From an uncultured bacterium (GTDB lineage: Bacteria > Omnitrophota > Omnitrophia > Omnitrophales > Abzuiibacteriaceae): 64,000 bases of DNA. A program made the position numbers and the translations under genes. The notes below the pieces were generated by a model. The model did not search any database. It was given only the letters and a program-made list of their open reading frames with translations, and was not told the origin of the DNA. The stretch spans positions 290,627 to 354,626 of the forward strand of contig CAYLXA010000001.1 in assembly GCA_964387845.1 (NCBI GenBank). Reading direction: 5' to 3'. Below are positions 41,330 through 64,000 of this stretch, one piece after another. Positions within the stretch are counted from its first letter, which is position 1, and every line of letters begins with the position of its first letter.

Positions 41330-41332
41330 AGG

Positions 41333-44835: not shown

Positions 44836-46574
44836 TAATATTTCCGCTCTCGCGGCTCATAAAGTGATGTGTCTACTTTTTCGTAACTTAATTCCGGAGC
44901 GTCCAGTTTATATTTTGCGATCGTGGTCTTGAGAAAATCTTTGTCGTTCCGGTCCGGAAATTCCGGCTTGTAATGCGCGCCGCGGCTTTCATTGCGCTTT
45001 AAAGCGCCGATCGTGATCACGCGCGCAAGCTGAAGCATGTTGATCAGTTCCCGTGTAAACACAAGCGGCTGATTGGCCCAGTTTGACATGTCATGAATAT
45101 TAACGTCATTTGTACGCTCAATCAGTTCAACTAATTTTTTATCCGTTTCCTCAAGCGTTTTGTTGACCCGGACAACCGTCACATTATCCGTCATCACCTT
45201 TGCCATTTCTTCCCACAGCTGGTAAGGATTTTCTTTGCCGCGCGAGCGCATGACTTTTTCATTTAAATCTTTTTGCCTACTGACTTCCTCATCAAAAATT
45301 TTCTGGCTCGACGATTCAGAACTTTGCTCGAGCCCGCCCACATATTTCACAGCTGTTGTGGCCGCCACCGCGCCGCCATAAATGCACGACAACAAGGAAT
45401 TTGCTCCGAGCCGGTTAGCGCCGTGATATTGATAATCGCACTCACCCGCCGCCAAAATACCTTTTACGTTTGTCATGTGCTCGTCGTCGATATACATGCC
45501 GCCCATCGTGTAATGAACTGAGGGAAACACGCGCATCGGAACTTTGCGCGGATCGTCACCGACAAATTTTTCATAAATTTCAATCACGCCGCCCAGTTTC
45601 GCTTCCAATGATTTGCGATCGAGATGCGAAATATCGAGATAGACGACATCTTTTCCGTCTAATCCGAGTTTCTGCTCACGGCAAACTTTGAAAATGGCGC
45701 GGCTTGCAATGTCGCGCGGCACGAGATTGCCGTATTTGGGATACATTTCTTCGAGAAAATACCAGGGTTTTCCATTTTTATAAGTCCACACGCGCCCGCC
45801 TTCGCCGCGGATCGCCTCCGACATCAACCGGTTTTTATCTTCACCCGGAATCGCGGTCGGATGAACTTGAATGAATTCGCCGTTTGCGTACCAAACACCT
45901 TGCTCAAAGAGCGCGCCCGCCGCGGAACCTGTGCAGATTGTAGAGTTGGTGCTGCGCCCATAAATCATCCCCACGCCGCCCGTGGCCATCACAACCGCAT
46001 CCGCGCGGAAAGCTTTGAGTTCGAGTGAAGCGAGATTGATCGCCGTAATTCCGCGCGCTACTTTTTGATCATCCAGAACAGCCGATAGAAATTCCCAGCC
46101 TTCATAGCGCGTGATAAGTCCGTCGGATTCAAAACGGCGGGTTTGTTCGTCGAGCGCGTAAAGCAGCTGTTGTCCTGTGGTGGCGCCTGCAAAAGCCGTC
46201 CGGTGAAACCGTGTGCCGCCGAAACGGCGGAAATCCAGCATGCCTTCGGCCGTCCGGTTAAACGGAACACCCATCCGGTCAAACATGTGAACAATGCCGG
46301 GCGCTGCTTCGCACATGCCGAGCACAAGTTTTTGGTTTGCCAAAAAGTCGCCGCCGAAAATGGTTTCCTCAAAATGAATGCGCGGCGAGTCGCCTTCACC
46401 TTTTGTATTGATAGAAGCATTGATGCCGCCTTGCGCGCATACAGAATGCGATCTTCGGCACGGAATAATGGAAAAAATATCAACCGCGAGGCCTTGCTCG
46501 GCCAGCTTTACGGCCGTCATCAGTCCCGCAAGACCGCCGCCAACTACGATGTATTTACCTTTCGCAACGCCCAT
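44835..46574 (-). CDS. sdhA: Succinate dehydrogenase / fumarate reductase flavoprotein subunit
   Basis: FAD-binding MGVAKGKYIVVGGGLAGLMTAVKLAEQG; HYTMGG; 579 aa. Confidence 0.9.
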   Translation of the reverse strand: MGVAKGKYIVVGGGLAGLMTAVKLAEQGLAVDIFSIIPCRRSHSVCAQGGINASINTKGEGDSPRIHFEETIFGGDFLANQKLVLGMCEAAPGIVHMFDRMGVPFNRTAEGMLDFRRFGGTRFHRTAFAGATTGQQLLYALDEQTRRFESDGLITRYEGWEFLSAVLDDQKVARGITAINLASLELKAFRADAVVMATGGVGMIYGRSTNSTICTGSAAGALFEQGVWYANGEFIQVHPTAIPGEDKNRLMSEAIRGEGGRVWTYKNGKPWYFLEEMYPKYGNLVPRDIASRAIFKVCREQKLGLDGKDVVYLDISHLDRKSLEAKLGGVIEIYEKFVGDDPRKVPMRVFPSVHYTMGGMYIDDEHMTNVKGILAAGECDYQYHGANRLGANSLLSCIYGGAVAATTAVKYVGGLEQSSESSSQKIFDEEVSRQKDLNEKVMRSRGKENPYQLWEEMAKVMTDNVTVVRVNKTLEETDKKLVELIERTNDVNIHDMSNWANQPLVFTRELINMLQLARVITIGALKRNESRGAHYKPEFPDRNDKDFLKTTIAKYKLDAPELSYEKVDTSLYEPRERKY

Positions 46575-47189
46575 TTAGACTCTCACTAAGTGAATCAGCG
46601 AACTGAGGCCCATCGTGAAAACAATTACGCCAAGAAGCGCGGAAAACACGGCTGAGACTCTTTGTGATTTTGGCCCGACCGTAATGCCCCAGCTGATTGC
46701 AAATCCCCAAAGGCCGTTTGCAAAATGGAAACACACGGCAGCAAGACCAACGATGTAAAACCAAAATGTAAACGGATTCGCCATAAGTTCCTGCATCCGC
46801 GCAAAACTCACTTCCGTTCCGTAAAGCGCGTGCATAATGCGTGTTTCATAAACGTGGTACAAAATATAGGCAAACGTAATCAAGCCCGTCCAGCGCTGAA
46901 GTACATAGAGAAAATTTTTTGTGTTCGGATAAGACGACAGGTTGGATTTTCCGCTAAACCAGACGTAGAAACCGTAACCGGCATGATACAAAATCGGAAG
47001 CGCGATAAAGATGATTTCAAGTGCAACCACAAACGGCAAACTTTGCAGGAATTCGATTTTTTCGTTGTAAGCTTCCGGGCCTTGTGTAATGAAGGAATTC
47101 GTGAACATGTGCTCCAGCAAAAAAGCGCCGATCGGAAATACGCCGGAAAGCGAGTGGAGCCTTCTAAGCCAGAATGAGGATTTAGACAT
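46575..47189 (-). CDS. Succinate dehydrogenase / fumarate reductase cytochrome b membrane subunit
   Basis: 204 aa, 5 predicted TM helices with conserved His. Immediately upstream of sdhA-sdhB. Confidence 0.6.
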   Translation of the reverse strand: MSKSSFWLRRLHSLSGVFPIGAFLLEHMFTNSFITQGPEAYNEKIEFLQSLPFVVALEIIFIALPILYHAGYGFYVWFSGKSNLSSYPNTKNFLYVLQRWTGLITFAYILYHVYETRIMHALYGTEVSFARMQELMANPFTFWFYIVGLAAVCFHFANGLWGFAISWGITVGPKSQRVSAVFSALLGVIVFTMGLSSLIHLVRV

Positions 47190-47191
47190 TT

Positions 47192-47276
47192 TTCAGTCGT
47201 AAGTTGTAAGTGGTAAGTCGTAAGTTAATAAAATGGTAAGTTTTTGCTTCTTACTTACCACTTATCACTTACGACT
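47192..47276. repeat. Heptad-repeat palindrome, copy 3, between the mdh stop and the sdh cytochrome b start
   Basis: CGTAAGT TGTAAGT GGTAAGT CGTAAGT ... ACTTACC ACTTATC ACTTACG ACTTACA. Confidence 0.55.
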
Positions 47277-48205
47277 TACAACTGGAGTTTACCGATACTT
47301 TCTTTCACATGCGCAACCGACTTTTGAAGCGCTGCTTGATCAGCGGCAGAAATTTTAAGCTCGATCACTTTTCGGACGCCGCTTTTATCCAAACTCACCG
47401 GAACACCGCAATAAGTACCGGAAATTCCGTATTCACCGTTCAAAAGTACGCAGCACGGCAAAATTCGGCCTGAGTCATTCAAAATTGCTTCGACCATTGC
47501 AACTGCCGAACTTGACGGCGCATAATACGCGCTGCCTGTTTTAAGCAAATTCACAATTTCGATTCCGCCGTCGCGCGTGCGCTGATTAATTGCATCGATT
47601 CTTTCTTTCTTGATGAGCTGTGTAATCGGAACGCCGTTCACGGTCGAGAAATCAGGGACCGGAACCATCGAATCGCCGTGGCCGCCCAACACCATCGCGC
47701 GAACGTCTTTCGGTGATACTTTGAGTTCTTCGGCAATAAAATACGCATAACGCGAGGAATCCAGAACGCCCGCCATACCGATCACGCGCTTTGAATCAAA
47801 CCCTGATTTCTTCCACGCCAGATAAGCCATGACATCCAGCGGGTTTGTGACAATAACGAGAATTGCTTTTGGAGAATATTTGACAATTTCGGTGACGATA
47901 CCGCCCACGATTTCGGCGTTTTTGGCCTGCAAATCATCACGGCTCATGCCGGGCTTTCGGGCGAGGCCTGCTGTGATCACAACGACGTCAGAATCTTTTG
48001 TATCAGCGTAGGAATTGGTGCCGACGATTTTGGTATCGAATTGCTCGAATGAGGAAGATTCCATCATATCAAGCGCTTTTCCCTGCGGCATTCCTTCAAC
48101 CACATCGACTAAAACGACATCCGCCAATTCTTTTTCAAGGATTCTTTGAGCGCAAGTGGCTCCGACGAAACCTGCTCCGACTACGGTCACTTTTGAACGA
48201 TTCAT
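47276..48205 (-). CDS. mdh: Malate dehydrogenase (LDH-like, NAD-dependent)
   Basis: KVTVVGAGFVGATCA Rossmann motif; VVITAGLARKPGMSRDDL; catalytic GGHGDSMVP. Confidence 0.85.
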   Translation of the reverse strand: MNRSKVTVVGAGFVGATCAQRILEKELADVVLVDVVEGMPQGKALDMMESSSFEQFDTKIVGTNSYADTKDSDVVVITAGLARKPGMSRDDLQAKNAEIVGGIVTEIVKYSPKAILVIVTNPLDVMAYLAWKKSGFDSKRVIGMAGVLDSSRYAYFIAEELKVSPKDVRAMVLGGHGDSMVPVPDFSTVNGVPITQLIKKERIDAINQRTRDGGIEIVNLLKTGSAYYAPSSSAVAMVEAILNDSGRILPCCVLLNGEYGISGTYCGVPVSLDKSGVRKVIELKISAADQAALQKSVAHVKESIGKLQL

Positions 48206-48324
48206 ATAGACTCCAAGCTTAAAAGATGAGAAGAAACGCGTAAGCCAATATTATCTGTTATTTTGAAAAACATGCAAGAAGTTTTAGGTGTAGTAATTAC
48301 GAGAAACAAAAGCAGAAATACAAA

Positions 48325-49524
48325 TTAACGGCCGGCGGCGAGAAGTAAATATCTTTGAAGATCGATCGGGTGCTGGCTGATGAGATTGTCCCACTGGCGG
48401 TGCGCGATTTCAAACTGTGCGCGGGCATCTTTCATTTTCTGGTGCGCCATTTCGTGAAAATCGTGCGAACGTTTATCCCACTCATTGCGAATTACTTTTT
48501 GATATTCCATCGCGGCGCGCTCCCAAGTCACCAAACTGTGACGCAAATCTTCATAACGCTGCCGGAACACTTCGAAAACCGGCACCAACCCGTGATGATG
48601 CTCCGCGGTTTTTAAAAGATCGTGGGTTCTCTGATGTTCCGCCGCCAAACGCGCATGCAAAATCTGAAACCGAGAAACCGTTCTTAAATCATGCGTCAGC
48701 CCGACACGGCTTAAAAACGCGATCACCCATTTGCTCGGATCCCATTGATACCAACGAACGCCGTTGCGGTAATCCGACGGAAAACGGTGATGAAAATTGT
48801 GATAGCCTTCTCCGTAAGTCATCATCGCCACAAACCAATGGTCCTTCGCGGTTGCGTAAATATCGTACGTCGCCTTTCCGAACATGTGGCAGACAGAATT
48901 AATGCAGAACGTTGAATGATAAACAATTGTGATTCTGGCGCAAACCGCGAAAATAAACGCGCCGAGCGCGTGTCCTGTCATGGCGCCGATTGCAATGGGT
49001 AGTAAAATTCCGGATGTAAACGCCCAAAGTAAGAAATATTTGTGCTGATGCATCACGAGCTTGGATTTCTGAAGGTCTTTGACGTTATCAAAATTGTATT
49101 GGTGATGCCAGAAAATCAGCCAGCCGATGTGCGCGTAGAAAAAACCTTTTTTAATGCTGTAAGGGTCGTCATCCGTGTCCACATATTGATGATGATCGCG
49201 GTGCTGAGAAGCCCATTTGAGTGCCGATTGCTCGAAAGCGGCGGAACCAAAGAAGAGAAGTAAAAACTGAATAATCGGATTTGCTTTGTAAGTCACATGG
49301 GCGAAAAGCCGGTGATAGCCAACCGTAATGCCTAAACCGCTGACCACCATATAAAAGGCAAACAGCCAAATTTCGGGCGCTGAAATACCATACTTATAGA
49401 TGTAAATCGGTGCACCAATTAAGGTTACAAGCATCGTAATGGCGAAGAATATAATATTCTCCCAGACGTAACCCTTGGTGAGTTTGGCTTTCGGTGTCTC
49501 TTGCTTCATAGGATAAGTAGCCAT
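48325..49524 (-). CDS. Membrane fatty-acid desaturase (Delta-9 acyl-CoA/acyl-lipid desaturase-like)
   Basis: Three His boxes: HRLFAH, HRDHH, HNFHHRF. N-terminal TM helices. Confidence 0.8.
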   Translation of the reverse strand: MATYPMKQETPKAKLTKGYVWENIIFFAITMLVTLIGAPIYIYKYGISAPEIWLFAFYMVVSGLGITVGYHRLFAHVTYKANPIIQFLLLFFGSAAFEQSALKWASQHRDHHQYVDTDDDPYSIKKGFFYAHIGWLIFWHHQYNFDNVKDLQKSKLVMHQHKYFLLWAFTSGILLPIAIGAMTGHALGAFIFAVCARITIVYHSTFCINSVCHMFGKATYDIYATAKDHWFVAMMTYGEGYHNFHHRFPSDYRNGVRWYQWDPSKWVIAFLSRVGLTHDLRTVSRFQILHARLAAEHQRTHDLLKTAEHHHGLVPVFEVFRQRYEDLRHSLVTWERAAMEYQKVIRNEWDKRSHDFHEMAHQKMKDARAQFEIAHRQWDNLISQHPIDLQRYLLLAAGR

Positions 49525-49576
49525 ATTATCCAGTTTATCGGTCAGGATTGCAAGTTTTTTAGAAAAAAGACGGTTT

Positions 49577-52312
49577 TTAACCTGTGCTTTTCATGCCAAA
49601 AGCAATGCCATTTAGGGCTAATAAAAGCACGTCTTTTATCTGATTCTGGCGGACAGCACTTTGGTTTGTGCTCTTTTTTGATTCTTCTAAAAACCGGACT
49701 TGAAGAAAATTCAAGGGATCAACGTACGGATTCCGCAAACGAATTGACTCTTTGAGAACCGGATGAAACCCCAATAAGTCGTCTTGCCCGGTAATTTCAA
49801 GAATTTGATCACAGCTCCGCGCATACTCTTCTTTGATCCGGCCGAAAATCTCAGACCGCACGGCCTCGGAATCCACCAAAGCAGAATACCGTTCGGCAAT
49901 ATACATATCCGCTTTTGCGAGAGATACGCGCGCATTGTCAATCAACATATGAAAAAAGGGCCATTTTTGGTACATTTCGCGAAGTTCGGCCAAACCTTTT
50001 TTGCCTGACTGCTTGATCTCCGCTTCAAGTGCATAGCCGATCCCATACCAGGCCGGTAAAATAAACCTCGACTGAACCCAGCTGAATACCCACGGAATCG
50101 CGCGCAGATCTTGAAATTCCCGCGAACGCTTGCGCGATGCCGGCCGTGAGCCGATCTGCGCAATCCCAAAAAGCTGAATAGGTGTTGCGGAATAAAAGAA
50201 TTCTTTAAAACCGGGCGAATCAAAAACCAAATCGCGATAAAATCTGAGCGATGTTTGGCATAGTTCTTCCATCTTTTTCTCCCATTCGGCAATTTTACGG
50301 CTTCTTGCCCATTCATGCTTGCCGACTAAATTGGTCCAAATGACGGCAGTCGCCAGCTGCTCCAAATTTCTTTGCGCAATCATCAGGTTGGCATACTTCT
50401 GCGAAACGACTTCGCCCTGCTCCGTAATCCTGATCTTTCCGCCCACCGCCGCATACGGCTGCGCCAAAATGGCTTTATGCGACTGTCCGCCTCCGCGGTC
50501 GATGGTGCCGCCTTTGCCGTGGAAAAACCGGACGGCGACATTAAATTTCTCGGCCATTTCGACCATCCGCTTCTGTGCAAGGTACAACTTCCAATTCGCC
50601 GCAAAATATCCGCCGTCTTTGTTGCTATCCGAATAGCCGAACATGATTTCCTGCAAATTGCCTTGGCTTTGCACATAGGAACGGTAAAGCGGAAGTGAAA
50701 AAAGTTTTTGCATAATCAAATGAGCTTCTGCTAGCGATTCGATTTTTTCAAAAAGCGGCACAATCGCCAGACAGCTTTCAACGACTTTTTTGCCTTTAAC
50801 TTTGATTAAGCCCGCACGAACCGCCAAATACATAAACCCAAGAATATCTTCGGGCTTTTCAGCCATGCTTAATAAATAATTCTTCACATAAGAGCGGCCC
50901 ATTTTTTCCTGAATTTCTTTGATGAGCTCAAGCTGCCGGATGATATCTTTGGATTCGGCGGATAGCCGGCGCGCTTTTTTAAACTGCGCGTTTTTCTTCG
51001 TGATTGCGCCAATCAATTGCCCGGCGGTTGGTTCAAATCCGAAAAGCTCCTTGACCGCATGCATGATTTTCCGGCTGTCGTCCCGGAAATCCAAAGCGGC
51101 CAAATGAAAACCGAATACGCGCACCTGGCAAATTAAATTTTCTAAATCACCCGCCACCGCAAACCGGCCTTTGTTCTTCTGCAGACTTTCTTGAATAATC
51201 AAAAGATCCGCCAAGAATTCATCCGGCGATTGATACTGAACGGATTTTTGCTGATACGTGTTTGAAAGTTTTCGGTGAATAAAAGAAAGTTTTTTTCGAT
51301 AGAGTTCGCTCGACTCATATTTGTCGAGTTCGGAAGCCAACTTGGGCATCAAGCGGCGGTCGTTGGCAAGCGAAGCCAAAAAGGAACGCCCGGCGCCGAT
51401 CATTTGGTCTGATTGGCTGAATTTCAGCATCAGCGCTTCGCAAGCGTTCAGGTAGAGCGTAAAAATAAGCTCTCGGTGGCGCCTTGCGGTTTCTTCGGTC
51501 ACCTGGCAAGTCACATTGGGATTACCGTCGCGGTCGGCACCGACCCAGGAGCCAAAACGCACCAGCGGCAAATCGCTGATTTTTCCCGTTGATTCATAAA
51601 ATTCATCATGACTTTTTTGAACGATTCGATGAAAAGCCGGAATCAGGGGGAAAATGGTTTTCTCAAAGAAAAAGAGAGTTTGGTCCACTTCATCCAAAAC
51701 CGAAACTTTTTTCGTGCGGGTTGGTTTTGTCTGCCATAAAATTTCGAGCAATTCCTTGATCTTTAATGTATGAGTTTCCTTTTCGAAATTGGTAGCGTCC
51801 GGGTGATTGATTTGAGACAAGCTCGACGCGATTTCTAGAATATGGCTCAGAATGGTCCGCCGTTTGACTTCGGTCGGGTGCGCCGTTAAAACCAATTCGA
51901 TATCCAAGCGATTGACAAGCCGGCTGACTTTTCGCTCGGAAATTTTTCGCTTAGACAAATCATGAAATAGTTTCCGGACCGACATATGCTGCAGCTGATT
52001 GTGCTTATCATATGCGCGTAGGCGGCGGATTCTTTCTGCTTCTTCGGCGATATTCGCGAGCTGAAAATAAATGGTGAATGCGCGCGCGATTTTGTACGCT
52101 TCCGGCACACTGAGTGATTGAATCAGCCGCCTTTTTTTGGCAATGAACGCCGGCGCATGGCTCTTCCGGATTTGCTTCGCAAAATGCCGGATTTTCTCGA
52201 TCTTATTTAATAACGCAACCCCCTCCTGATCCCGGATCACATCGCCCAGAATTTTTCCGAGAAACCGGACATCCTGCCGCAATAGACTGTTTGACATGTT
52301 TTTATTTCTCAT
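49577..52312 (-). CDS. ppc: Phosphoenolpyruvate carboxylase
   Basis: VLTAHPTE, FHGKGGTIDRGGG, and the C-terminal ...MKSTG ending typical of PEPC. 911 aa. Confidence 0.9.
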   Translation of the reverse strand: MRNKNMSNSLLRQDVRFLGKILGDVIRDQEGVALLNKIEKIRHFAKQIRKSHAPAFIAKKRRLIQSLSVPEAYKIARAFTIYFQLANIAEEAERIRRLRAYDKHNQLQHMSVRKLFHDLSKRKISERKVSRLVNRLDIELVLTAHPTEVKRRTILSHILEIASSLSQINHPDATNFEKETHTLKIKELLEILWQTKPTRTKKVSVLDEVDQTLFFFEKTIFPLIPAFHRIVQKSHDEFYESTGKISDLPLVRFGSWVGADRDGNPNVTCQVTEETARRHRELIFTLYLNACEALMLKFSQSDQMIGAGRSFLASLANDRRLMPKLASELDKYESSELYRKKLSFIHRKLSNTYQQKSVQYQSPDEFLADLLIIQESLQKNKGRFAVAGDLENLICQVRVFGFHLAALDFRDDSRKIMHAVKELFGFEPTAGQLIGAITKKNAQFKKARRLSAESKDIIRQLELIKEIQEKMGRSYVKNYLLSMAEKPEDILGFMYLAVRAGLIKVKGKKVVESCLAIVPLFEKIESLAEAHLIMQKLFSLPLYRSYVQSQGNLQEIMFGYSDSNKDGGYFAANWKLYLAQKRMVEMAEKFNVAVRFFHGKGGTIDRGGGQSHKAILAQPYAAVGGKIRITEQGEVVSQKYANLMIAQRNLEQLATAVIWTNLVGKHEWARSRKIAEWEKKMEELCQTSLRFYRDLVFDSPGFKEFFYSATPIQLFGIAQIGSRPASRKRSREFQDLRAIPWVFSWVQSRFILPAWYGIGYALEAEIKQSGKKGLAELREMYQKWPFFHMLIDNARVSLAKADMYIAERYSALVDSEAVRSEIFGRIKEEYARSCDQILEITGQDDLLGFHPVLKESIRLRNPYVDPLNFLQVRFLEESKKSTNQSAVRQNQIKDVLLLALNGIAFGMKSTG

Positions 52313-54627: not shown

Positions 54628-56412
54628 CTACGAACGAACTTTATGATAGCGGCTTCTTAATAGCAAGAGAAAAGCAACATCTGCCGCTACCACGGCGGAA
54701 ACATACCCCACACCACCGCCGCCAAAACCATAACTATGAAGCCCGGCCGCTAAGACAAAATTCACGCCGTACCAGGCCATGATCACCGTCAAAAAGCAGA
54801 CCGCGCACCAAAACGCGGTCGCGAATGAATCCAGCCAGCCGGCAGTTCGCCCATGCATAACCGCCAAATACGCAAGTAACGCAATCAAAGCCCAGGTTTC
54901 CTTCGGATCCCAGCCCCAAAACCGGCCCCATGAATAATTCGCCCAAACGCCGCCCAGGATTGTTCCGGCAGCGAGCAAAATAAGCCCAATTTGAAGCGAA
55001 CGATAAAGAAAAGTAATAAGCTCATCTAACGTTTTATTATTTTTTTTCTTAAAAGCATAGTGAAACACAACCACATGCGCGACACCCCAATTGAGCAAAA
55101 ACGCACCATAGCCGAGCGTAATCGTCAGCACATGAACTGTGAGCCAAAAATTGCTGCGCAAAACGGGAACCAAAGGCGAAATCGACTGGTCCAAAACCGC
55201 CGGTAAATTTTCGCTGATCAAGAGCGCCAGAATGGATACGGACGCTGCGATCATCGGAATCAAATAGGACCTGTAAAAAGCAAAAAGAATGAGCGAGAAA
55301 AGCACAACACTCCACGACACCCAAATGACTGACTCATACATGTTCGTCACGGGCGGACGCCCGGCGATTAAACAACGCAGCACAAAACCCAACGTATGAA
55401 CCGCAAAAGCCGCGGTAAAAAATGAGAAAGCGATTTTATTGGCGCGTTTTTTATTTCTCAGTGTCAGCCAGATCAGAAGGCTGCCTAAATAAATTGCCCA
55501 TGCCGTATGAAACGGGCGAAATTTGAGATAGAAAAGCTCGTAATGAATCAACGTCCGGTCGATGATGATGTCGCGCGATTCCAGTAATTTTGTAAGCGCA
55601 TTGGCGAAAAATGAAGCAGATACGCCGGCCATTTCGATTTTTTCATCCCGCAAGCGGCCGAGGAGAAATGAAAGTGAGTTACTCGCTTCCTTCACATTCG
55701 CCGCGGGATACATGGTTTCCAAAATGGAAATACCGTGATCGCTCGCAAGCCCCTCAAGCGGAACCCACCCCGCCTGTGGATCATCGGGATGCGGAATAAA
55801 GCCCGGCATTTCTCCGCGCCCGATAGCCTGAAACAGACGCGCTCTGCTTCCGAGTTCAATCATTGCCTTTTCGTATTCGTTTAGTTTTTCTTTTCTGTCC
55901 TGCTTAGCCCTTACTTCACCTGTTCTTGCCGTAAAATTCAAATCGGCGAGAACAAGAGAAGGTGCGATTCTATTGTTTTCCAGATCCGCGGAGAAATCCT
56001 TTCGTAACTCGGGATTTGAAACAGGTAAAATAGCCTTCGCGCTCCAAATATCGGGGGCCGCAATCCATCGCCACACCAGTTCGGTTGGCTCCATTTTTTG
56101 AAAATGTGTTTTGCCGGTCATATAGAGGACGATTTCTTTCGCGAAACTCTCAAACGGCTTGACGCGGCCGCCCTGCTGAACCGGAATTCCACCCAAAACT
56201 TCGTGCGCATTACCTTCGGATTGATTGGCAAAGGATTGGGGCGAGAAAAACATCGCCAAGAGAATGACTAAAGAAAGACTGACAATAAATTTACAATACA
56301 CCCCCTCACCCTTTCCCTCTCCCTGAGGGAGAGGGGAATTGTTTAACTCACTCCCTCTCCCGCTTGCGGGAGAGGGCTGGGGTGAGGGTTGATTATTTAG
56401 AAATTGTCTCAT
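54628..56412 (-). CDS. ccsA: Cytochrome c biogenesis protein CcsA/ResC (System II haem-handling, W-rich domain); the N-terminal 40 codons are REP-encoded and the start is ambiguous
   Basis: WGRFWGWDPKETWALIALLAYLAVMHG (WWD domain). The ATG at 56412 overlaps the ccsB stop as TAATG, suggesting translational coupling. Alternative start near GTG at 56292 or M54. Confidence 0.75.
   Translation of the reverse strand: MRQFLNNQPSPQPSPASGRGSELNNSPLPQGEGKGEGVYCKFIVSLSLVILLAMFFSPQSFANQSEGNAHEVLGGIPVQQGGRVKPFESFAKEIVLYMTGKTHFQKMEPTELVWRWIAAPDIWSAKAILPVSNPELRKDFSADLENNRIAPSLVLADLNFTARTGEVRAKQDRKEKLNEYEKAMIELGSRARLFQAIGRGEMPGFIPHPDDPQAGWVPLEGLASDHGISILETMYPAANVKEASNSLSFLLGRLRDEKIEMAGVSASFFANALTKLLESRDIIIDRTLIHYELFYLKFRPFHTAWAIYLGSLLIWLTLRNKKRANKIAFSFFTAAFAVHTLGFVLRCLIAGRPPVTNMYESVIWVSWSVVLFSLILFAFYRSYLIPMIAASVSILALLISENLPAVLDQSISPLVPVLRSNFWLTVHVLTITLGYGAFLLNWGVAHVVVFHYAFKKKNNKTLDELITFLYRSLQIGLILLAAGTILGGVWANYSWGRFWGWDPKETWALIALLAYLAVMHGRTAGWLDSFATAFWCAVCFLTVIMAWYGVNFVLAAGLHSYGFGGGGVGYVSAVVAADVAFLLLLRSRYHKVRS
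56300..56390. repeat. REP-like family 1, copy 4 (two inner hairpins inside a CCCTCACCC/GGGTGAGGG outer stem), lying in the 5' end of the ccsA ORF
   Basis: CCCTCTCCCTGAGGGAGAGGG and CCCTCTCCCGCTTGCGGGAGAGGG. Translated as ...PSPQPSPASGRGSELNNSPLPQGEGKGEG... Confidence 0.6.
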
Positions 56413-58172
56413 TAGATTTTCCTCATTTTGGGGTCACTGGTCTTAAGCGTCGAATATTGTTTTAAATAGAATAACAAAATAATTCCGACTATCATCACAA
56501 TCGAACCCGCATATTTAACCGGGATACCGGGGTCGCGCGCAACTGTAAAGACGGAAATATCCGGCTCGCCGGGCGTCACTTGATACGCAGATTGATACAC
56601 TTTGAAACTACGATGAACGAGCGGTTCATTCATCTGAATCAATTGATCGCGGCTGATTCCCTTCGCTACGTCTTTCAAAGTGACCTGGCTTTTGAAACTG
56701 GCGGGCCGGTTGGTGCCGGGATCCGTATCCATTAAAAAATCATTCAATTGAATCGTGAAGCCCAGCGGTTGCGTCTCAAGCCCATAAACAAAGTGCCAAT
56801 CATGGCCGCCTAACTGAGTCCGTTCAACCTGGCCCTGCCGAAGCCATAAATTTTGAGATTCATTTCCGTCCGATAGTTCGATTTGAATGACGCGAGTTGC
56901 GCCTGTGCGCTCTGAAGCGAGAGGAATCGGAGAAAATGAACGTTCTACTTCGGCATGATGATAAAAAGCATCAACACTGAATTTAAAATCCATCCATCCG
57001 GTTTCAATTTGTTTGCCGATTTCGACAATGCCGTCCGTAAGCAAATCGCCCTTTTTAACTTGATAGCGCGGTAAACCGTCCGGATTATAAATGAACCGAA
57101 GTTCGTTCTTTGAAGCCGCTTGATCCGCTTGGCCGGCCATTTTCATCGCAATCCGCATTCCGGAAGCGCTTGGCGCCATGCCATGCACAGTCGGAAAATC
57201 GGGAAAATTCGCGAAAATGGTATGCTGTTCGTTCAATCCATCGCCTTCCAAGATCAATTCCACCGCGGGGTTCCGCCACTCCTTGGAACGGTCAATCAAT
57301 TTGTTTTGATCTACAATCGCATCACGCAAAATACGGTTGAGCTTAGCGCGGATTTTAGTGCCTTGAAGCGTAAATGATTTTGGTTTGTCGGATTCCTTGA
57401 TCGGAACCTGAATGATTTTACCCGATTTGAGCATAAATTCTAAATGCGCAAATTCATCTCCCGATTTTTTCTTCGGTTTCTCGATGTCAATCGGTTGGCG
57501 CGCAAAATGAATGACGGCGGCACCCATGGCTAGCTGATTTTTTTCGGGATTATCCAAGAAAAGCCAATCGTTGGTTTGCGCCATCGATCCGGATAGTGAA
57601 AATTGAATGGCGGGAGACCCTTTGGCGGATTCTTTGACAGATTCTCCCAAAACCGCTTTCGGGAAATCCTGCAAAACATGGATCTGAACGGAGCTTTTCG
57701 GCTTCAATTCCAATTTCCGGCGCCCGGACCACGGAAACACGCTTGGTTTATAATGCATGACAAAATGTTCTTTCAAATCGGGAGAGAAAATTTCAAGTAT
57801 CGGATTCGCCAAAGTCATACGGCTTTCGGAATCGCCTTCCTGAATCGACACCTGCCCTTCAATCCCGAAACGCTGCGTGATCAAAGAACCAATGAGAATC
57901 AAGATGATTCCGAGATGGGTCAAAAGAAAACCGATGTGCTGCTTGCGCCACGGCCAACGGCTGATTGCGGATGCGGCTAAATTAATCGCCAGTAAAACCA
58001 AAACAATCGAAAACCAAGGAGTATAATAAATCAAGCGCTGGGCGGCTTCCGCACCGTGATACGACTCGATGAAGGTGCCGGCAGCCACAATAATCGCGAC
58101 AGTTACAATAAGCAGAACCGCGCACCAAAGCGAAGCAAAAAATTTGAATAGGTCGGACAATAGATGATTCAT
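56412..58172 (-). CDS. ccsB: Cytochrome c biogenesis protein CcsB/ResB
   Basis: N-terminal TM MNHLLSDLFKFFASLWCAVLLIVTVAIIVAAG, a large periplasmic domain, then a C-terminal TM. Immediately upstream of ccsA. Confidence 0.7.
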   Translation of the reverse strand: MNHLLSDLFKFFASLWCAVLLIVTVAIIVAAGTFIESYHGAEAAQRLIYYTPWFSIVLVLLAINLAASAISRWPWRKQHIGFLLTHLGIILILIGSLITQRFGIEGQVSIQEGDSESRMTLANPILEIFSPDLKEHFVMHYKPSVFPWSGRRKLELKPKSSVQIHVLQDFPKAVLGESVKESAKGSPAIQFSLSGSMAQTNDWLFLDNPEKNQLAMGAAVIHFARQPIDIEKPKKKSGDEFAHLEFMLKSGKIIQVPIKESDKPKSFTLQGTKIRAKLNRILRDAIVDQNKLIDRSKEWRNPAVELILEGDGLNEQHTIFANFPDFPTVHGMAPSASGMRIAMKMAGQADQAASKNELRFIYNPDGLPRYQVKKGDLLTDGIVEIGKQIETGWMDFKFSVDAFYHHAEVERSFSPIPLASERTGATRVIQIELSDGNESQNLWLRQGQVERTQLGGHDWHFVYGLETQPLGFTIQLNDFLMDTDPGTNRPASFKSQVTLKDVAKGISRDQLIQMNEPLVHRSFKVYQSAYQVTPGEPDISVFTVARDPGIPVKYAGSIVMIVGIILLFYLKQYSTLKTSDPKMRKI

Positions 58173-58272
58173 AACAGTTTAAGATAAGGGGTAATTATAC
58201 ATGATTGGCATAGCACACGTCATTAGAAACCGAAATTAGTTTAAGCGGGAATTAATTAGACTGATTGAAGAA

Positions 58273-60360
58273 TCAGCCCCAAGCCAAGCTGATTTCGCAG
58301 GAAATTAAATGCGCAATGTAATCGCCAAATTCGGCGTTGGAATTGGCAAGATAGTAATAAAGTCCGTATTTTGGCTCAACAGTTACTTTTTCATTCACAT
58401 TCCATTTCAAGCCCGCTTCCAAATCCAGTTTCCGATAATCAGATCCGATCGGCAAGCCTCTGGCAGTAAAATCATTAAAATTATCAGCACGGGCATATTG
58501 CACCGATTGAATAAACGAAACATTTTCTTTCGGCATGTAGCTCGTACTCAATGTCCACGTATCCACATTCGCGTTAAAACCCGGCAGGTTACCGCTTAAT
58601 GCGCCGGCGGCCGGAGTATTGGTGTTTGACATAAGCTTTGAATAGGAGCCCAGAATCATTACATTTTCAACGGGTTGCGATGTAAAATCAAAAATAAAAT
58701 TATTTGAGGTTGTTTCCGTATCAACGCCTGCTAAATTTTCAATGTTCGTCCTGTAATTTGTATCGCGCCCGATAAACCGAAAAGACGGCTGAAGATATTT
58801 GGTTAATGTCAATGCCAACCTCATCATGAATTCATTAATATAGGTGTGCTGGCTGTCAAAAAATGCAGATTTTGAAACTCCTGATGAAACAGTTTCGTAA
58901 ATATCATCGTAATCCGTCATTTTAAGAGTCCTTCGAAAATGCGAAGTAATCCGCACAAATGAAAACGGCGCTGCGTGCCCGCCTAAAGTCATCACGCCAC
59001 GCTGGATGTTTGTAATCGTTTCGCGAATAAAAACTTCACTTGCACTCGCCCCCGACTGTCCGCCAACGCTATCCCGATTTTCAGACATCGGTAACCGGTC
59101 TTGTTCTAATTCCAATTCTGTATAAATAGCCGTCCGCGGAATCGCCGTAAATCTGGCCGTAATCCCTTGTCCCCACCTGAAACCGCTCATACGCGTATCG
59201 CTGACGTCAAATCGGTTAATGCGATTATCGGGCGGATCTGTGGTCTCAACGTTATAAGTAGACTCTCCGCGGCGATTTAAAAATTCTGACTTAACCTTTG
59301 CGCCGATATTGAACCATTTTGTGACCAGGGCCATCATATTAGCAACCCAGGTGTTGGAATGAAAATGGTTGGTTGCGATATTGCCAAAACGGTTTTCAGC
59401 ATTTGCAAATGAACGCGGATTACCATTTTCGTCAAACTCTCGGATATCTTCCCATTCTTTGTTATGGATTTGTGCATATCGATACCCAGCCGAAGTGTAC
59501 ACTTTGTCCTTTAAAAACCACTTCGCGATTCCAAATATTGAGCTGAAAGTGTGTGCTTCCGGCTTTTGCTGCTGCTTTCTAATTAATTTATTACCAGCCG
59601 TAGCATCAGAGTCAGCGCCAAAATATTTCTCGACGCGTGTGTTATCGGATTTCACAATTTCAAATTTTTGCTCGCTTTTAAGTTCATAACCTTTAACGGT
59701 ATGGTCGACTTTCAAGCCAAACGTATCCGCCACTTCGCTCACATCCTGATAGGAAGGCGCTATTTTCCGCGTCACACCGCTCTGAACCACGTCTCCCCAT
59801 GTTAATCTGGATTTTGCACCATTTTTAAATTCGCGCTCATACCCAATCATTACTTTTGGAAAATCCGGTATATCCAGCTCCGCTTCAACGCCGAAATGGC
59901 CGATGTCCAGTTCTAAATCTTTAACCGCGTCGCCAACCCGGAGTGTGTAGTCGCCCCGCGTTAGATTAAACGGATGATAAACACCGCCCGTCCGGTCATA
60001 ATATTTCCGGAACTCTTGGTAATCAAATTTGATTTGTCCCACTTCTTTTTTCTTGATGATGACAACGCCTTCGTAATCATTGTCCGCGGGGATTGCCTTG
60101 CCTTCCATTTTTACCGTAATATCATTCGGAAGCCTGTAAAAAGAATAAAATTCCTCAACGCCTGCGGCGTAATTGTTGCTCTTCCAATGATGCGCTCTGA
60201 ATTTATCGGCTTCCCCGTCCACAAAAATATAACGGACCGGAAGAGGTGTGATATCAAGATGATTTTCTGAATTATTTTCCGAAGCTGCGTATAGAGATTG
60301 AGTGACGGCCAAAGAGACATACGCTAAAACGAATATTAACTTCCAATATGAGCGTCTCAT
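58273..60360 (-). CDS. Outer-membrane beta-barrel (porin-like) protein, candidate porin partner of the adjacent multihaem cytochromes
   Basis: Start trimmed to MRRSYWKLIFVLAYVSLAVTQSLYAASE (signal peptide; TAAGGAGG SD 7 nt upstream). Alternating amphipathic beta-strand-like composition. C-terminus ...ISLAWG with an aromatic-rich end. Confidence 0.5.
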   Translation of the reverse strand: MRRSYWKLIFVLAYVSLAVTQSLYAASENNSENHLDITPLPVRYIFVDGEADKFRAHHWKSNNYAAGVEEFYSFYRLPNDITVKMEGKAIPADNDYEGVVIIKKKEVGQIKFDYQEFRKYYDRTGGVYHPFNLTRGDYTLRVGDAVKDLELDIGHFGVEAELDIPDFPKVMIGYEREFKNGAKSRLTWGDVVQSGVTRKIAPSYQDVSEVADTFGLKVDHTVKGYELKSEQKFEIVKSDNTRVEKYFGADSDATAGNKLIRKQQQKPEAHTFSSIFGIAKWFLKDKVYTSAGYRYAQIHNKEWEDIREFDENGNPRSFANAENRFGNIATNHFHSNTWVANMMALVTKWFNIGAKVKSEFLNRRGESTYNVETTDPPDNRINRFDVSDTRMSGFRWGQGITARFTAIPRTAIYTELELEQDRLPMSENRDSVGGQSGASASEVFIRETITNIQRGVMTLGGHAAPFSFVRITSHFRRTLKMTDYDDIYETVSSGVSKSAFFDSQHTYINEFMMRLALTLTKYLQPSFRFIGRDTNYRTNIENLAGVDTETTSNNFIFDFTSQPVENVMILGSYSKLMSNTNTPAAGALSGNLPGFNANVDTWTLSTSYMPKENVSFIQSVQYARADNFNDFTARGLPIGSDYRKLDLEAGLKWNVNEKVTVEPKYGLYYYLANSNAEFGDYIAHLISCEISLAWG

Positions 60361-60370
60361 GACGGCCTCC

Positions 60371-61153
60371 TTAATATCGAAGATGATCGTCAAAATTGGA
60401 ACCATGAACCGCCGTGTGGCACTTCGCGCTGAAGCAAGTGCCTTGCGCAAGGCGCGTAGCATGATTAGAACTTCCGATGAACGGAAAATTATCTTGTGTA
60501 TGACAACGTAAACATAAATTACTGTCGCGGGCAATCAGCATTTTGTCAGTAATCGAGCCATGAACTTGATGACATGTCGTGCAGCCTTCGCGCAGCGCTT
60601 CATGCTCCCACACAAACGGGCCGCGTTGTTCTTTATGACATTTAAAGCATGCTTCGTTGACATCTTCCATGGTTGTGGATGACCATGGCCTGACTTCCGG
60701 TCCGTGCGGACTATGGCAGTCCGAACAACTCATCTTTCCTTCGAGCACGGGATGGTGGTGCGGAAGATTAAATTCTACTTTTTTATCGGTATGACACGCA
60801 AAACAGACGGACGGATCTTTTCTGGGATTAATGATTTTCTTATCTTGGCTGGATTCTTTTAACTTATCATCCATATCGACATGTAGACTTCCGGGGCCAT
60901 GACAAAGCTCGCAGCCTTGTACCGCCATATCTTTTCCGGGAATGCTGATACGGGAATGGGTCGAAAGTTCAAACTCTTTGACTTCTTTTTCATGGCAAGC
61001 GGCGCAAGTATCCATACCGACATACTCCGCGCCTTCTATGTTATGAACTTCGAGAACTTTTTGGAGGGCTTCTTCGTCGTATTTGCAAGAAGTGACACTG
61101 AGAACGAGGGATAATACCGCAAAACTAACAAAAATGCTGGCTTTTTGATTCAT
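60371..61153 (-). CDS. Multihaem cytochrome c lipoprotein (7 CxxCH plus one CX4CH-like site)
   Basis: Lipoprotein signal MNQKASIFVSFAVLSLVLSVTSC. Haem motifs CAACH, CELCH, CFACH, CSDCH, CFKCH, CTTCH, CLRCH and CFSAKCH. Confidence 0.8.
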   Translation of the reverse strand: MNQKASIFVSFAVLSLVLSVTSCKYDEEALQKVLEVHNIEGAEYVGMDTCAACHEKEVKEFELSTHSRISIPGKDMAVQGCELCHGPGSLHVDMDDKLKESSQDKKIINPRKDPSVCFACHTDKKVEFNLPHHHPVLEGKMSCSDCHSPHGPEVRPWSSTTMEDVNEACFKCHKEQRGPFVWEHEALREGCTTCHQVHGSITDKMLIARDSNLCLRCHTQDNFPFIGSSNHATRLAQGTCFSAKCHTAVHGSNFDDHLRY

Positions 61154-61286
61154 GCTAGCGGTTTATGATTTGTGTTTGCGTACGAATTATATTGTTTTAT
61201 TAAGAAATGACAATCGCTTTTATGGCAGTGAAATTATCGACATTTCCTGAAAAACTTTATGTGACATCTGTCACTTAAATTGACGT

Positions 61287-62777
61287 TTATGCAGGGCCGC
61301 CGGTATGGCAATCCATGCACGATATTTCTTTCCATGATTCTTGATCGCCGTCGGGATGCTTAAATTCCAGCCCATCTACCGAACTTTCCATAGCGCCAAA
61401 TGGACCTTGAGCAATAATCCCGTGGCAAATTTTGCAATCATTTGAAATGATTTTACCCTGCGGGCTTTCATGCTTGCCGTCATGGCAACGGAAACAACCT
61501 GGCGCCATCATGTGCCCGATATTGTCCGGATACGCTTTCCAAGACACATTCATACCCGGGAAAAAGTTGGATTGATAAATTTCAACAATGGCTTGAATAG
61601 AACGGTCTAACTTGTTTTTCTGATTCTGGAAAACTTCCGGATAATTATCCTCGTAAAATTTTTCCAACCGCGACCGAATCTGAGCAGCCGCATCATCATG
61701 AGACTCGTATTTGCCGACCAAAACCTTGACGGCTTCGCGTTTCATATAAGGGAGCTCGGCGGCAATATCGCCTTTTCCCATTGCTTTATTGACAGACCTG
61801 GAAGGCGCTTCATATTGATGGCTGGGCCGATTGTGGCAATCGATGCAGTCCATTTTTCGGATTTCGCCTTGCGGCGGTTTGCTAGCAGAAAATTTTGACT
61901 CACTGTCTACAAAATATTCTTCGCGGCCATCCTCATAAACCACTTTGACCCATGGAATTATTTGACGTTTTTCGTCAGTTGAAACATAGTAAACTTTGTT
62001 CGCAGGGTTCACATGCCAATGGCTTCCATGCGCCTTTTCCCCGCCGCCCACATACATCAGCATGCGGGTGTTCCAAAGTGTGTTACTTTCGTCTGACATG
62101 AAATATTGATGATCCTTCTCAATGGCTCCAAAAAACTTCTCGGGCCAATGACAATGTTCGCATGTTTCTTGAGCGGGCCGTAAATTCTTGACCGGCGCCG
62201 GAATGGGTTTGGAATATTTCTTGAAAATAGATGAATAAATTTGATGGGCGCCGTTAATTTTAGACTTCAAATAATAATCAGGCCCTGGGCCGACATGGCA
62301 TTCAACGCAGGAAACGCGGGCATGCGGCGATTTGTGATACGCGGTAAATTCCGGATGCATGACTTGATGGCAGGTTTTTCCGCAAAATGTCACGGATTCC
62401 GAAAATTGATAAGCCTTGTAAGTTCCAAACATAGAAAAAATCAAGAAAACCGTGAAAAACCCAATGCCGATTAACGCCCAGCGTTGATGGGCCGGATTAT
62501 TAAAATCAATCTGCGGAAACTTGCGGACATAACCTCTTTTCCGGCGCGCCGAACGTTCCCGCCAAGCGCCAAAAAAAATTAAAAAAAGAGTGAGTATAAG
62601 GAAGGCCGGAAGCCCGACATAAGTGATGGATTGCGTGTAGGGATTAATTTCTTTTGAAAGGAATTCGAGGACAATTAAAACTAAGATAGCAGAGAAAATG
62701 ACAATGGAAAGAATTGCGCCGATAATGCTGAGCCAATTTTGAAAAAGGCTTTTGTTTGAATTTGGCAATTCAGACAT
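61287..62777 (-). CDS. Membrane-anchored multihaem cytochrome c with NapC/NirT/NrfH-like N-terminal quinol-dehydrogenase region (6 CxxCH)
   Basis: N-terminal TM, then CGKTCHQVMHPEFTAYHKSPHARVSCVECH, CEHCH, CIDCH, CFRCH, CKICH, CMDCH. Confidence 0.75.
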   Translation of the reverse strand: MSELPNSNKSLFQNWLSIIGAILSIVIFSAILVLIVLEFLSKEINPYTQSITYVGLPAFLILTLFLIFFGAWRERSARRKRGYVRKFPQIDFNNPAHQRWALIGIGFFTVFLIFSMFGTYKAYQFSESVTFCGKTCHQVMHPEFTAYHKSPHARVSCVECHVGPGPDYYLKSKINGAHQIYSSIFKKYSKPIPAPVKNLRPAQETCEHCHWPEKFFGAIEKDHQYFMSDESNTLWNTRMLMYVGGGEKAHGSHWHVNPANKVYYVSTDEKRQIIPWVKVVYEDGREEYFVDSESKFSASKPPQGEIRKMDCIDCHNRPSHQYEAPSRSVNKAMGKGDIAAELPYMKREAVKVLVGKYESHDDAAAQIRSRLEKFYEDNYPEVFQNQKNKLDRSIQAIVEIYQSNFFPGMNVSWKAYPDNIGHMMAPGCFRCHDGKHESPQGKIISNDCKICHGIIAQGPFGAMESSVDGLEFKHPDGDQESWKEISCMDCHTGGPA

Positions 62778-62814
62778 TTTTTACTTTTTTCCCGTATCGA
62801 TACAGTGCCGACTG

Positions 62815-63378
62815 TTACGATTTCGGTTTTGGATGTGCAATCTTTGCTTGGCGCTCTTTGTAATCAAACGGCTTGTAGGTCGGGCTTTCCTGATTATGGC
62901 ACTTCACGCACGTACTTTCATCCGGTAACAACAAACCATTTTCAATCGATGCCTGGCGGTCTTCCATAACACTTTTCTTCATATAATCCTTACCGGGCCC
63001 GTGACAGCTTTCGCAGGAAACACCTTCCTCTACCGGAATCGCATCAGAAACTTTTGTTTCGCCAAACCAATAAGCCGTTGAGTGGCATTTTAAACACTTG
63101 CCGCTGGTTTGAGGATCGCTAATACCTAATTTGGCAGCCGCTTCTTTCGCGGCGGGTGTGCCGAGTGTTTCAAATGCTTTAGCATGCATGGATTCCTGCC
63201 AAATCCGGAATTGCTCACCTTCTTCCGGTTTTTTGTGGCACAGGGAACATTTTTTGGCTCCGATAAATTCATGTGCAGGCGCTGCTGCAAAAACAGGTTG
63301 ATGGCTGAGAAAAAATACGGAAATAACAGCTAGGAAATATTTGAGAAAAATACCGGAATGAAACGAGTGCTTTGACAT
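62815..63378 (-). CDS. Tetrahaem cytochrome c, periplasmic
   Basis: Start trimmed to MSKHSFHSGIFLKYFLAVISVFFLSHQPVFAAAPA (signal peptide). CSLCH, CLKCH, CESCH, CVKCH. Confidence 0.7.
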   Translation of the reverse strand: MSKHSFHSGIFLKYFLAVISVFFLSHQPVFAAAPAHEFIGAKKCSLCHKKPEEGEQFRIWQESMHAKAFETLGTPAAKEAAAKLGISDPQTSGKCLKCHSTAYWFGETKVSDAIPVEEGVSCESCHGPGKDYMKKSVMEDRQASIENGLLLPDESTCVKCHNQESPTYKPFDYKERQAKIAHPKPKS

Positions 63379-63686: not shown

Positions 63687-63706
63687 AAGTTGAGGAGGTG
63701 CTCACA

Positions 63707-64000
63707 TGCAAAGCGTGTTACTATTAATTGCTCTCGGTTTTGGCTTTAAAATATTCGCGGAAGCCAGTGAAAAGCAGAAAAAACCCATTAAACAGCTCGG
63801 CCGGTTGGTCGGTATTATCATCATGATTGTCAGCCTTTGCGGCGTTTTGTGCAGCATTTTCGCCTGCATGAAAGGCAGCCCCTGTGGTCCGGCGACGGCC
63901 GGCTATTGCCCTACTCATGGATCCGAAAAAGGAATGATGGGTTTCGGCCATTACGGGATGAAAAAGGATAAGGCGATGTGCCCCTTGTTTGGTTCAGCCG
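63707..64000 (+). CDS. Small Cys-rich membrane protein, partial (runs off the window end). Not in the ORF track because there is no stop in the window.
   Basis: Strong SD GAGGAGGTG 7 nt before ATG. MQSVLLLIALGFGFKIFAEASEKQKKPIKQLGRLVGIIIMIVSLCGVLCSIFACMKGSPCGPATAGYCPTHGSEKGMMGFGHYGMKKDKAMCPLFGSA. The overlapping minus-strand ORF 63724..63951 is judged spurious. Confidence 0.45.

Follow-up and report, generated by a model that had tools for sequence, protein, structure and literature searches.

Introduction

In the MtrAB conduit of Shewanella, the ten haems of MtrA span 80 Å and the last of them, haem A10, is the haem exposed at the cell surface; MtrAB without MtrC is expected to reduce soluble substrates via this haem, but not oxides (Edwards 2020, PMC7198977). 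In Geobacter, the inner-membrane cytochrome ImcH is needed to reduce high-potential extracellular acceptors, and imcH is monocistronic (Levar 2014, PMC4251993). In a 2018 survey, no imcH gene had mtrAB or mtoAB as a neighbour (Zhong and Shi 2018, PMC6295460). The porin-cytochrome (Pcc) proteins are reported to share no sequence homology with MtrAB (He 2017). On metal reduction by Omnitrophota, a genome survey names no more than "homologues of periplasmic cytochromes" in some Omnitrophia (Seymour 2023), and we found no description of the module analyzed here in open-access papers and preprints. Here we analyze a cluster of six genes in a stretch of 64,000 nucleotides (nt) from an uncultured Omnitrophota bacterium (contig CAYLXA010000001.1, positions 290,627 to 354,626; the whole stretch is called the window). 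The cluster probably encodes a complete minimal chain that leads from quinol through an ImcH-type cytochrome, a c554-like shuttle, and a conduit of MtrA-like and MtrB-like proteins to an extracellular acceptor.

Results

The gene cluster

In the list of open reading frames (ORFs), the region between window positions 54628 and 63378 contains six that are all on the minus strand and arranged head to tail. The order of transcription is cyt4 (a tetrahaem c554-like cytochrome), cyt6 (496 amino acids [aa]), cyt8 (an octahaem lipoprotein), barrel (695 aa), ccsB, and ccsA. A preliminary description of this DNA had placed the cytochrome and barrel genes downstream of ccsBA, which is true only of plus-strand coordinates; in transcription they are upstream. 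The gaps between the six genes are, in order, 37, 133, 10, 100, and −1 nt, the ccsB stop overlapping the ccsA start. The 10-nt gap between cyt8 and barrel contains GGAGG, 5 nt ahead of the barrel ATG, and AGGAG precedes the cyt4 ATG at 63378.

Apart from cyt4, cyt6, and cyt8, no ORF in the window has more than one CxxCH motif. The three cytochromes have 8, 14, and 17 Cys, respectively, all of which belong to haem motifs apart from the one in the cyt8 lipobox; the motifs are therefore not due to chance.

cyt8, a predicted octahaem homologue of MtrA

The product of cyt8 (60371 to 61153, minus strand; 260 aa, seven CxxCH motifs plus one CX4CH, lipobox VTSC) matched MtrA (PDB entry 6R2Q, chain A) with an E value of 2.9e-41, in two aligned stretches that span all eight haem sites. 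(We read chain A as MtrA; the printed chain name looks mislabelled.) Residues 23 to 151 of cyt8 aligned with MtrA 39 to 168, and residues 107 to 254 aligned with MtrA 173 to 325. Covered in MtrA are haems 1 and 2, haems 7 to 10, and a single one of the two di-haem units at the centre. Both of these central units align with the stretch of cyt8 that contains haems 3 and 4, and cyt8 therefore corresponds to MtrA minus one such unit. Judged by sequence, cyt8 is clearly an MtrA homologue, shortened from ten haems to eight. Since ten haems span 80 Å in MtrA, eight haems of the same type should span a membrane of ∼40 Å. At E ≤ 0.001, cyt8 has 2796 relatives.

The homology of cyt8 to MtrA argues against the OmaB-OmbB-OmcB type of Pcc found in Geobacter, which is unrelated in sequence, and we rejected that type because cyt8 is MtrA-like. 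Thus, of the porin-cytochrome module resembling that of Geobacter that had been proposed earlier, the module itself stands, and its type is more probably Mtr/Mto/Pio.

The last haem site of cyt8, CFSAKCH (60416 to 60436, minus strand; translation confirmed), aligns with the last site of MtrA, CLNCH, its first Cys lying two residues nearer the N terminus; it is the counterpart of MtrA exit haem 10. The preliminary description had called this spacing unusual. The motif is real and rare, but it is no one-off oddity: in the cyt8 subfamily of MtrA proteins it consistently marks the last haem. It occurs in the form C[FWY][ST]xxCH, exactly 14 residues from the C terminus, in 119 of the 120 closest cyt8 homologues. 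Among 34 cyt8 orthologues in related loci (designated below by L numbers), CX4CH is present at the terminal site in 31, absent in L010 and L038, and replaced by CFSCH in L009. The L009 gene (7232 to 7990 of that locus) is the one natural variant with a canonical motif at the same position, and either a true reversion or a mistake in the assembly could account for it. We found no report of CX4CH in MtrA-type proteins in open-access papers and preprints.

Across 50 cyt8 homologues 17 His residues are invariant, 8 of them proximal and 9 others. By count these would suffice for bis-His ligation of all eight haems, and such a set suggests that cyt8 works as an electron wire and not as an enzyme. 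A lipobox is found in 29 of 120 homologues and is thus not a conserved trait of the family; the window's nearest relatives, L003 and L029, do have it. One subgroup of cyt8 homologues (L005, L008, L016, L017, L023, and L037; ∼380 to 425 aa) is extended at the N terminus and has there a ninth haem site, CK[VAT]CH, which follows a conserved "ATIxNxKSYKxAYP"-like stretch.

The predicted MtrB-like barrel

The gene that follows cyt8 (58273 to 60360, minus strand) encodes 695 aa with a signal peptide. An outer-membrane beta-barrel had been suggested for this protein, and the AlphaFold model, made with 50 homologues in the alignment, agrees: it predicts an all-beta barrel with a predicted local distance difference test (pLDDT) score of 89.9 and a predicted TM-score (pTM) of 0.79. 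Long and short connections alternate in the model, giving 26 strands with both termini periplasmic if residues 189 to 222 are one kinked strand; this count is our own reading of the DSSP string. In a Foldseek search the best match to the model was MtrB (6R2Q_B; E value 1.5e-11, TM-scores 0.65 and 0.70). Two details specific to MtrB recur in the model: the loop from strand 1 to strand 2 holds a small helix (H51-58), and the strands near the N terminus are short (compare Edwards 2020, PMC7198977).

The next-best structural matches were 22-strand TonB-dependent transporters, with TM-scores of at most 0.47. The barrel has no match to the Pfam TonB-dependent receptor or plug families, and its model contains no plug domain. 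On these grounds, and for its poorer fit, we rejected a TonB-dependent transporter.

In a set of 5.8 billion proteins the barrel has 69 relatives; those with a name are all from Candidatus Omnitrophica/Omnitrophota save one labelled "bacterium," and none is named for a function. A full profile search returned 914 clusters at 50% identity (E ≤ 0.001), 401 of them at E ≤ 1e-30. When seven barrel relatives of ∼800 to 900 aa were scanned, six proved to be fusions in which a monohaem cytochrome c domain of the PSCyt1 type (PF07635), or a pair of them, precedes the barrel at the N terminus, which ties the barrel family independently to electron transfer. These six (P0269, P0275, P0278, P0290, P0311, and P0325) are distant relatives from outside the window.

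Synteny in related loci

A scan of species-representative genomes gave 37 barrel loci, mostly in metagenome-assembled genomes (MAGs) of Omnitrophota, with several automatically labelled assemblies and one Syntrophales MAG. This distribution would by itself place the window in an Omnitrophota genome. Of the related loci, 33 include sequence upstream of the barrel gene, and in 32 of these cyt8 immediately precedes it; the single exception is an ORF-calling artefact. Thirteen loci are well flanked, with at least 6 kb on each side of the barrel; counting neighbours within 8 kb, eight of these have an ImcH homologue (all with CX3CH), six have ccsBA, and two have cyt4. The ImcH gene directly follows the barrel in L012, L024, and L028. 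A MAG labelled Eisenbacteria (L040) has ccsAB, cyt8, a 703-aa barrel, a 93-aa ORF, and a 494-aa ImcH.

Many related loci (L005, L008, L011, L016, L017, L025, L027, and L035) have, just 3′ of the barrel, a gene for a 9-haem protein of ∼410 to 650 aa, and these proteins may be extracellular partners. In L003, L011, and L029, CbcL-like proteins, with 6 to 11 haems fused to an FdnI/HydC-type cytochrome b, adjoin ImcH. The window has neither a 9-haem protein nor a CbcL-like protein and is a minimal version of the cluster. Two assemblies, JACPXL01 (L006/L026) and JACQQY01 (L018/L038), have two cyt8-barrel pairs each, on separate contigs, so paralogous copies seem to occur within genomes. In CAZIQJ01, L021 holds only the C-terminal part of a barrel and L036 only the N-terminal part; they may be two pieces of one split gene.

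cyt6, an ImcH-type cytochrome, and cyt4

The product of cyt6 (61287 to 62777, minus strand) has seven haem sites, at residues 132, 157, 206, 311, 428, 448, and 487. Six are CX2CH. The first is CX3CH (CGKTCH; 62367 to 62384, minus strand; translation confirmed) and adjoins the third transmembrane segment (TM3); the earlier count of six haems had missed it, while the counts of seven plus one in cyt8 and four in cyt4 were right. The hydrophobic segments are residues 10 to 45, 49 to 74, and 99 to 120, with a strongly basic loop (73 to 99) between TM2 and TM3. Residues 102 to 189 match the Pfam NapC/NirT region (Cytochrom_NNT, PF03264; E value 6.7e-12, 45.9 bits against a cutoff of 24.1).

The preliminary description regarded a NapC/NirT-type N terminus on a protein of this size as a nonstandard architecture; in fact it is the architecture published for ImcH. 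Proteins of that family have three N-terminal TM helices, a CX3CH site next to TM3, six CX2CH sites, and lengths of 495 to 519 aa; ImcH of Geobacter sulfurreducens (GSU3259) has its motifs at residues 132, 156, 205, 311, 428, 448, and 486 and its TM helices at 13 to 35, 45 to 67, and 100 to 122 (Zhong and Shi 2018, including Table S3, PMC6295460). The CX3CH first site is the published hallmark of ImcH (Levar 2014, PMC4251993; Zhong and Shi 2018, PMC6295460), and it is kept in every cyt6 homologue found in the related loci. The same survey lists three ImcH homologues from Omnitrophica WOR_2 genomes (Zhong and Shi 2018, PMC6295460), and in L016, another Omnitrophica WOR_2 MAG, a cyt6 homologue adjoins the cyt8-barrel pair. 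On every architectural feature tested, cyt6 agrees with ImcH; the assignment rests on architecture, motif positions, and the WOR_2 homologues rather than on a direct alignment with GSU3259. The cyt6/ImcH family is very large, with at least 7954 matches across many phyla.

cyt4 (62815 to 63378, minus strand) encodes a secreted tetrahaem cytochrome c of 187 aa, with a signal peptide, four CxxCH motifs, and eight Cys. It matches Pfam Cytochrome_C554 (E value 9e-18) and c554 of Nitrosomonas europaea (1BVB; E value 3e-12), the latter over its first ∼100 residues, a stretch with three of the four haem motifs. Against the NCBIfam c554 equivalog it scores 58 bits, far below the cutoff of 400.

Multihaem cytochrome genes in a row might also form an operon of the nrfHA or hao kind, for a periplasmic reductase of nitrite or hydroxylamine, with the barrel an unrelated porin or TonB-dependent transporter. 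There are weak matches of this kind: cyt6 partially matches NrfH (TIGR03153, 51.4 bits against a cutoff of 134; 2J7A_C, E value 5e-4), and cyt4 matches, besides c554, Cytochrom_C552 at 23.6 bits, just under the cutoff of 24.1. However, the cluster has no NrfA gene, no HAO gene, no CXXCK motif in any ORF, no match to Cytochrom_C552 above threshold, and no catalytic cytochrome at all, and such an operon would leave the strict cyt8-barrel synteny unexplained. We consider this explanation very improbable and rejected an nrfHA or hao operon for lack of a catalytic cytochrome; an operon such as nrfHA had been named beforehand as the alternative. The best reading is that the conduit is of the Mtr/Mto/Pio type, neither the Pcc type of Geobacter nor nrfHA.

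ccsB and ccsA

The last two genes are ccsB (56412 to 58172, minus strand; 586 aa), which matches Pfam ResB (PF05140; E value 6.6e-26), and ccsA (54628 to 56412, minus strand; 594 aa), which matches Cytochrom_C_asm (PF01578; E value 2.6e-32) and, over residues 333 to 562, TIGR03144 (E value 3e-47; 161.5 bits, below the equivalog cutoff of 187.6). ccsA contains the WWD motif WGRFWGWDPKETW. As the preliminary description had it, these genes are a System II cytochrome c maturation pair. In addition, CcsA has an N-terminal extension of ∼330 aa, and it is 59% identical to the L003 orthologue with the extension included.

A perfect palindrome, CCCTCTCCC-NNN-GGGAGAGGG, occurs four times in the window (12494 to 12514, 32663 to 32683, 38260 to 38280, and 56315 to 56335), where chance predicts none; it looks like a family of repetitive extragenic palindromic (REP)-like repeats. 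The copy at 56315 is part of the 5′-terminal stretch of the ccsA ORF and translates there as "SPLPQGEGKGEG"; this N-terminal portion of CcsA has no aligned counterpart in the L003 orthologue. The gene may tolerate the repeat in frame, or else translation of ccsA really begins at a later codon.

Wolinella has dedicated CcsA isoenzymes for CX2CK and CX15CH sites, and the ccsBA pair described here could likewise be a dedicated System II lyase for the CX3CH site of ImcH and the CX4CH site of cyt8, instead of a housekeeping enzyme. Both motifs are invariant in their families (CX3CH in the cyt6 homologues of related loci, CX4CH in 119 of 120 cyt8 homologues), the ∼330-aa periplasmic extension of CcsA is conserved, and wherever ccsBA lies within 8 kb of the cyt8-barrel pair in the well-flanked loci (6 of 13) ImcH is there too, as it is again in L040. 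We nevertheless think a dedicated lyase doubtful. The other seven well-flanked loci have no ccsBA nearby, small genomes may hold this ccsBA copy alone, and the CX4CH sites of cytochromes c3 are matured by System I without special lyases.

Surroundings of the cluster

Upstream of cyt4 are ∼250 to 300 nt without a minus-strand ORF, followed by a small divergent ORF on the plus strand (∼63700 to 64000). It encodes a Cys-rich membrane protein (MQSVLLLIALGFGF...CGPATAGYCPTHG...) and runs off the end of the window. Sequences resembling sigma-70 promoters are no more numerous between 54 and 64 kb than expected from shuffled sequence, and such matches are weak evidence; the best two fall in the 133-nt gap before cyt8 (61186 to 61213, minus strand; TTGTCA, 16 nt, TATAAT; 11 of 12 positions) and in the 100-nt gap before ccsB (58194 to 58223, minus strand; 10 of 12). 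Rfam and tRNA scans of the whole window found nothing, and no riboswitch or leader was detectable in the intergenic gaps.

Directly after ccsA are genes for an Na/H exchanger and an Na/Ca exchanger. Beside the cluster is a block of central-metabolism genes (39950 to 52312, minus strand) with phosphoenolpyruvate carboxylase (Ppc; 49577 to 52312, minus strand), a fatty-acid desaturase, malate dehydrogenase (Mdh), SdhC/A/B (44086 to 47189, minus strand), and succinyl-CoA synthetase (SucCD; 41333 to 43395, minus strand). This block is consistent with a respiring, quinone-using organism.

The window also contains a giant ORF (13405 to 31332, minus strand; 5975 aa, GTG start) in which the only Pfam domains are sparse ones (Bac_transf, Methyltransf_25, His_Phos_1, PPDK_N, and PTS-HPr). 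Giant, poorly annotated ORFs are reported to be typical of Omnitrophota and have been tied to cell attachment (Seymour 2023).

Discussion

We propose the following path for electrons. cyt6 would oxidize quinol, which could be made, for example, via the succinate dehydrogenase and tricarboxylic acid (TCA) cycle enzymes encoded nearby. cyt4 would ferry the electrons across the periplasm. cyt8, presumably threaded in the 26-strand MtrB-like barrel, would conduct them through the outer membrane. There, as the window encodes no MtrC-like partner, the CX4CH haem at the outer mouth would itself be the site that reduces extracellular acceptors. The adjoining ccsBA would mature the 19 c-type haems. Suitable acceptors would be Fe(III) chelates, humics, or shuttles: soluble or chelated compounds with a fairly high potential. 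Because MtrAB without MtrC is expected to reduce soluble substrates and Geobacter ImcH serves high-potential acceptors, acceptors of this kind fit best.

Several points weigh against this proposal. The entire case, from gene content and homologies to predicted fold and conserved synteny, is computational, and none of it is experimental. cyt8 scores 175.7 bits against TIGR03508 (the DmsE family), under the curated cutoff of 192.2, and has 8 haem sites rather than 10. The AlphaFold model of cyt8 alone, made with 50 homologues, had a pLDDT of 49.5 and was not used; such a low value is expected because a haem-packed protein was modelled without its haems. The sequence evidence for homology between the barrel and MtrB is thin. 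The barrel itself has no Pfam or NCBIfam match at E ≤ 0.1, PF11854 and TIGR03509 included; only 1 of 51 members of the barrel family (P0055) reaches PF11854, at 30.3 bits and out of register; and the barrel-family profile, searched against PDB sequences, did not find MtrB, its sole match being a spurious one to a sigma factor (E value 0.3). What ties the barrel to MtrB is thus structure and synteny, not sequence. ImcH is not nearby in 5 of the 13 well-flanked loci. With promoter-like sites ahead of both cyt8 and ccsB, the cluster may be transcribed as up to three units, and ccsBA may be the genome's housekeeping System II.

Nor does sequence fix the direction of flow, and in MtoAB and PioAB this architecture serves to take electrons up. 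The cyt8-barrel pair could take electrons from extracellular Fe(II), reduced humics, or minerals and pass them via cyt4 to ImcH, acting as a quinone reductase, or to another oxidase. The module consists of two components, the window encodes no extracellular cytochrome resembling MtrC, and this layout is that of MtoAB and PioAB. cyt4 is c554-like, and c554 of Nitrosomonas feeds a NapC/NirT-type quinone reductase; in one relative, L001, the locus adjoins a multicopper-oxidase-like gene and NnrS. However, the window has TCA-cycle enzymes instead of a terminal oxidase or carbon-fixation genes, and some relatives also bear CbcL-like proteins, CbcL being one of the inner-membrane cytochromes with which Geobacter respires extracellular acceptors. 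Furthermore, ImcH homologues were found only in Fe(III) reducers and are regarded as quinol oxidases (Zhong and Shi 2018, PMC6295460). We thus think inward flow unlikely, and we infer that electrons flow outward.

More speculatively, the CX4CH haem could be a specialised surface reaction centre, matured by the extended CcsBA, through which ultra-small and possibly host-dependent Omnitrophota exchange electrons with the surface of a partner or host cell (an electrical symbiosis or parasitism) and not with minerals. Omnitrophota are reported to be mostly ultra-small with host-dependent traits, and the 5975-aa giant ORF in the window is of a type linked to cell attachment (Seymour 2023). The exit haem, moreover, has an attachment motif that is invariant and specific to its family. 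All this is circumstantial, though, and nothing in the locus indicates a partner. The cyt8-barrel pair also occurs in MAGs labelled Syntrophales and Eisenbacteria, and a respiratory role is simpler given the adjoining TCA-cycle and Sdh genes. We regard such wiring between cells as quite improbable and prefer respiration of soluble or chelated extracellular acceptors.

The type of machine is known: it is Mtr/Mto-type extracellular electron transfer, MtrAB/MtoAB coupled to ImcH. The shortened, conserved variant is new, although not categorically so. Surveys find conduits by means of MtrB/PioB models and decahaem MtrA models, and the large cyt8-barrel family slips under both. For the Omnitrophota, which are uncultured and ecologically widespread, the cluster offers a concrete and testable respiratory module. 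For protein design, a natural eight-haem minimal wire that is independent of MtrC and has an odd attachment of its exit haem is useful for asking what trans-membrane length is required and what the chemistry of the end haem does.

Compared with MtrAB of Shewanella (6R2Q; Edwards 2020, PMC7198977), the cluster likewise has a large barrel gene directly preceded by the gene for a multihaem NrfB-like cytochrome. cyt8 and MtrA are homologues, and MtrB is the best structural match to the barrel, with 26 strands as we read them. Unlike MtrA, cyt8 has eight haems instead of ten, attaches the last of them via CX4CH, and, in the window's clade, carries a lipobox; unlike MtrCAB, the window encodes no MtrC/OmcA partner. 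MtrB is recognised by PF11854 and TIGR03509 and the barrel is not. An N-terminal CXXC has been reported for MtrB, whereas the barrel has a single Cys and so lacks this motif.

MtoAB and PioAB resemble the cluster in having two components, a cytochrome and a barrel of the MtrA/MtrB superfamily, with no extracellular cytochrome. They differ in that their cytochromes are decahaem, their barrels are recognised by MtrB_PioB models, and their partners are CymA or of the MtoC/CbcL type; here the partner is ImcH, and flow would be outward. Like the Pcc of Geobacter (OmaB/OmbB/OmcB and the Ext clusters), the cluster combines an octahaem cytochrome on the periplasmic side with a porin-like barrel, and some Pcc versions have a lipoprotein cytochrome. 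Pcc, however, has a dodecahaem outer lipoprotein, and no 12-haem gene is in the window; the OmbB porin has ∼20 strands and the barrel, as we read it, has 26. These differences, together with the homology of cyt8 to MtrA, speak against Pcc at the level of described features. The fusions of PSCyt1 to relatives of the barrel recall Cyc2, a fused cytochrome-porin, but here the barrel belongs to a large MtrB-like family.

cyt4 is similar to c554 of N. europaea (1BVB) in being encoded beside a NapC/NirT-related membrane cytochrome, although its mature form is ∼160 aa against 211 and no HAO is present. Finally, cyt6 and ImcH of G. sulfurreducens (GSU3259) are alike in length (496 and 507 aa), in their near-identical motif positions, and in their three TM helices. 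In contrast to Geobacter imcH, imcH here and in many Omnitrophota loci adjoins an MtrAB-like pair and a c554-like gene. The divergence of the barrel probably explains why the 2018 survey found no mtrAB adjacent to imcH. Unlike in that census, imcH and an MtrAB-like pair are repeatedly neighbours, which revises the picture of ImcH.

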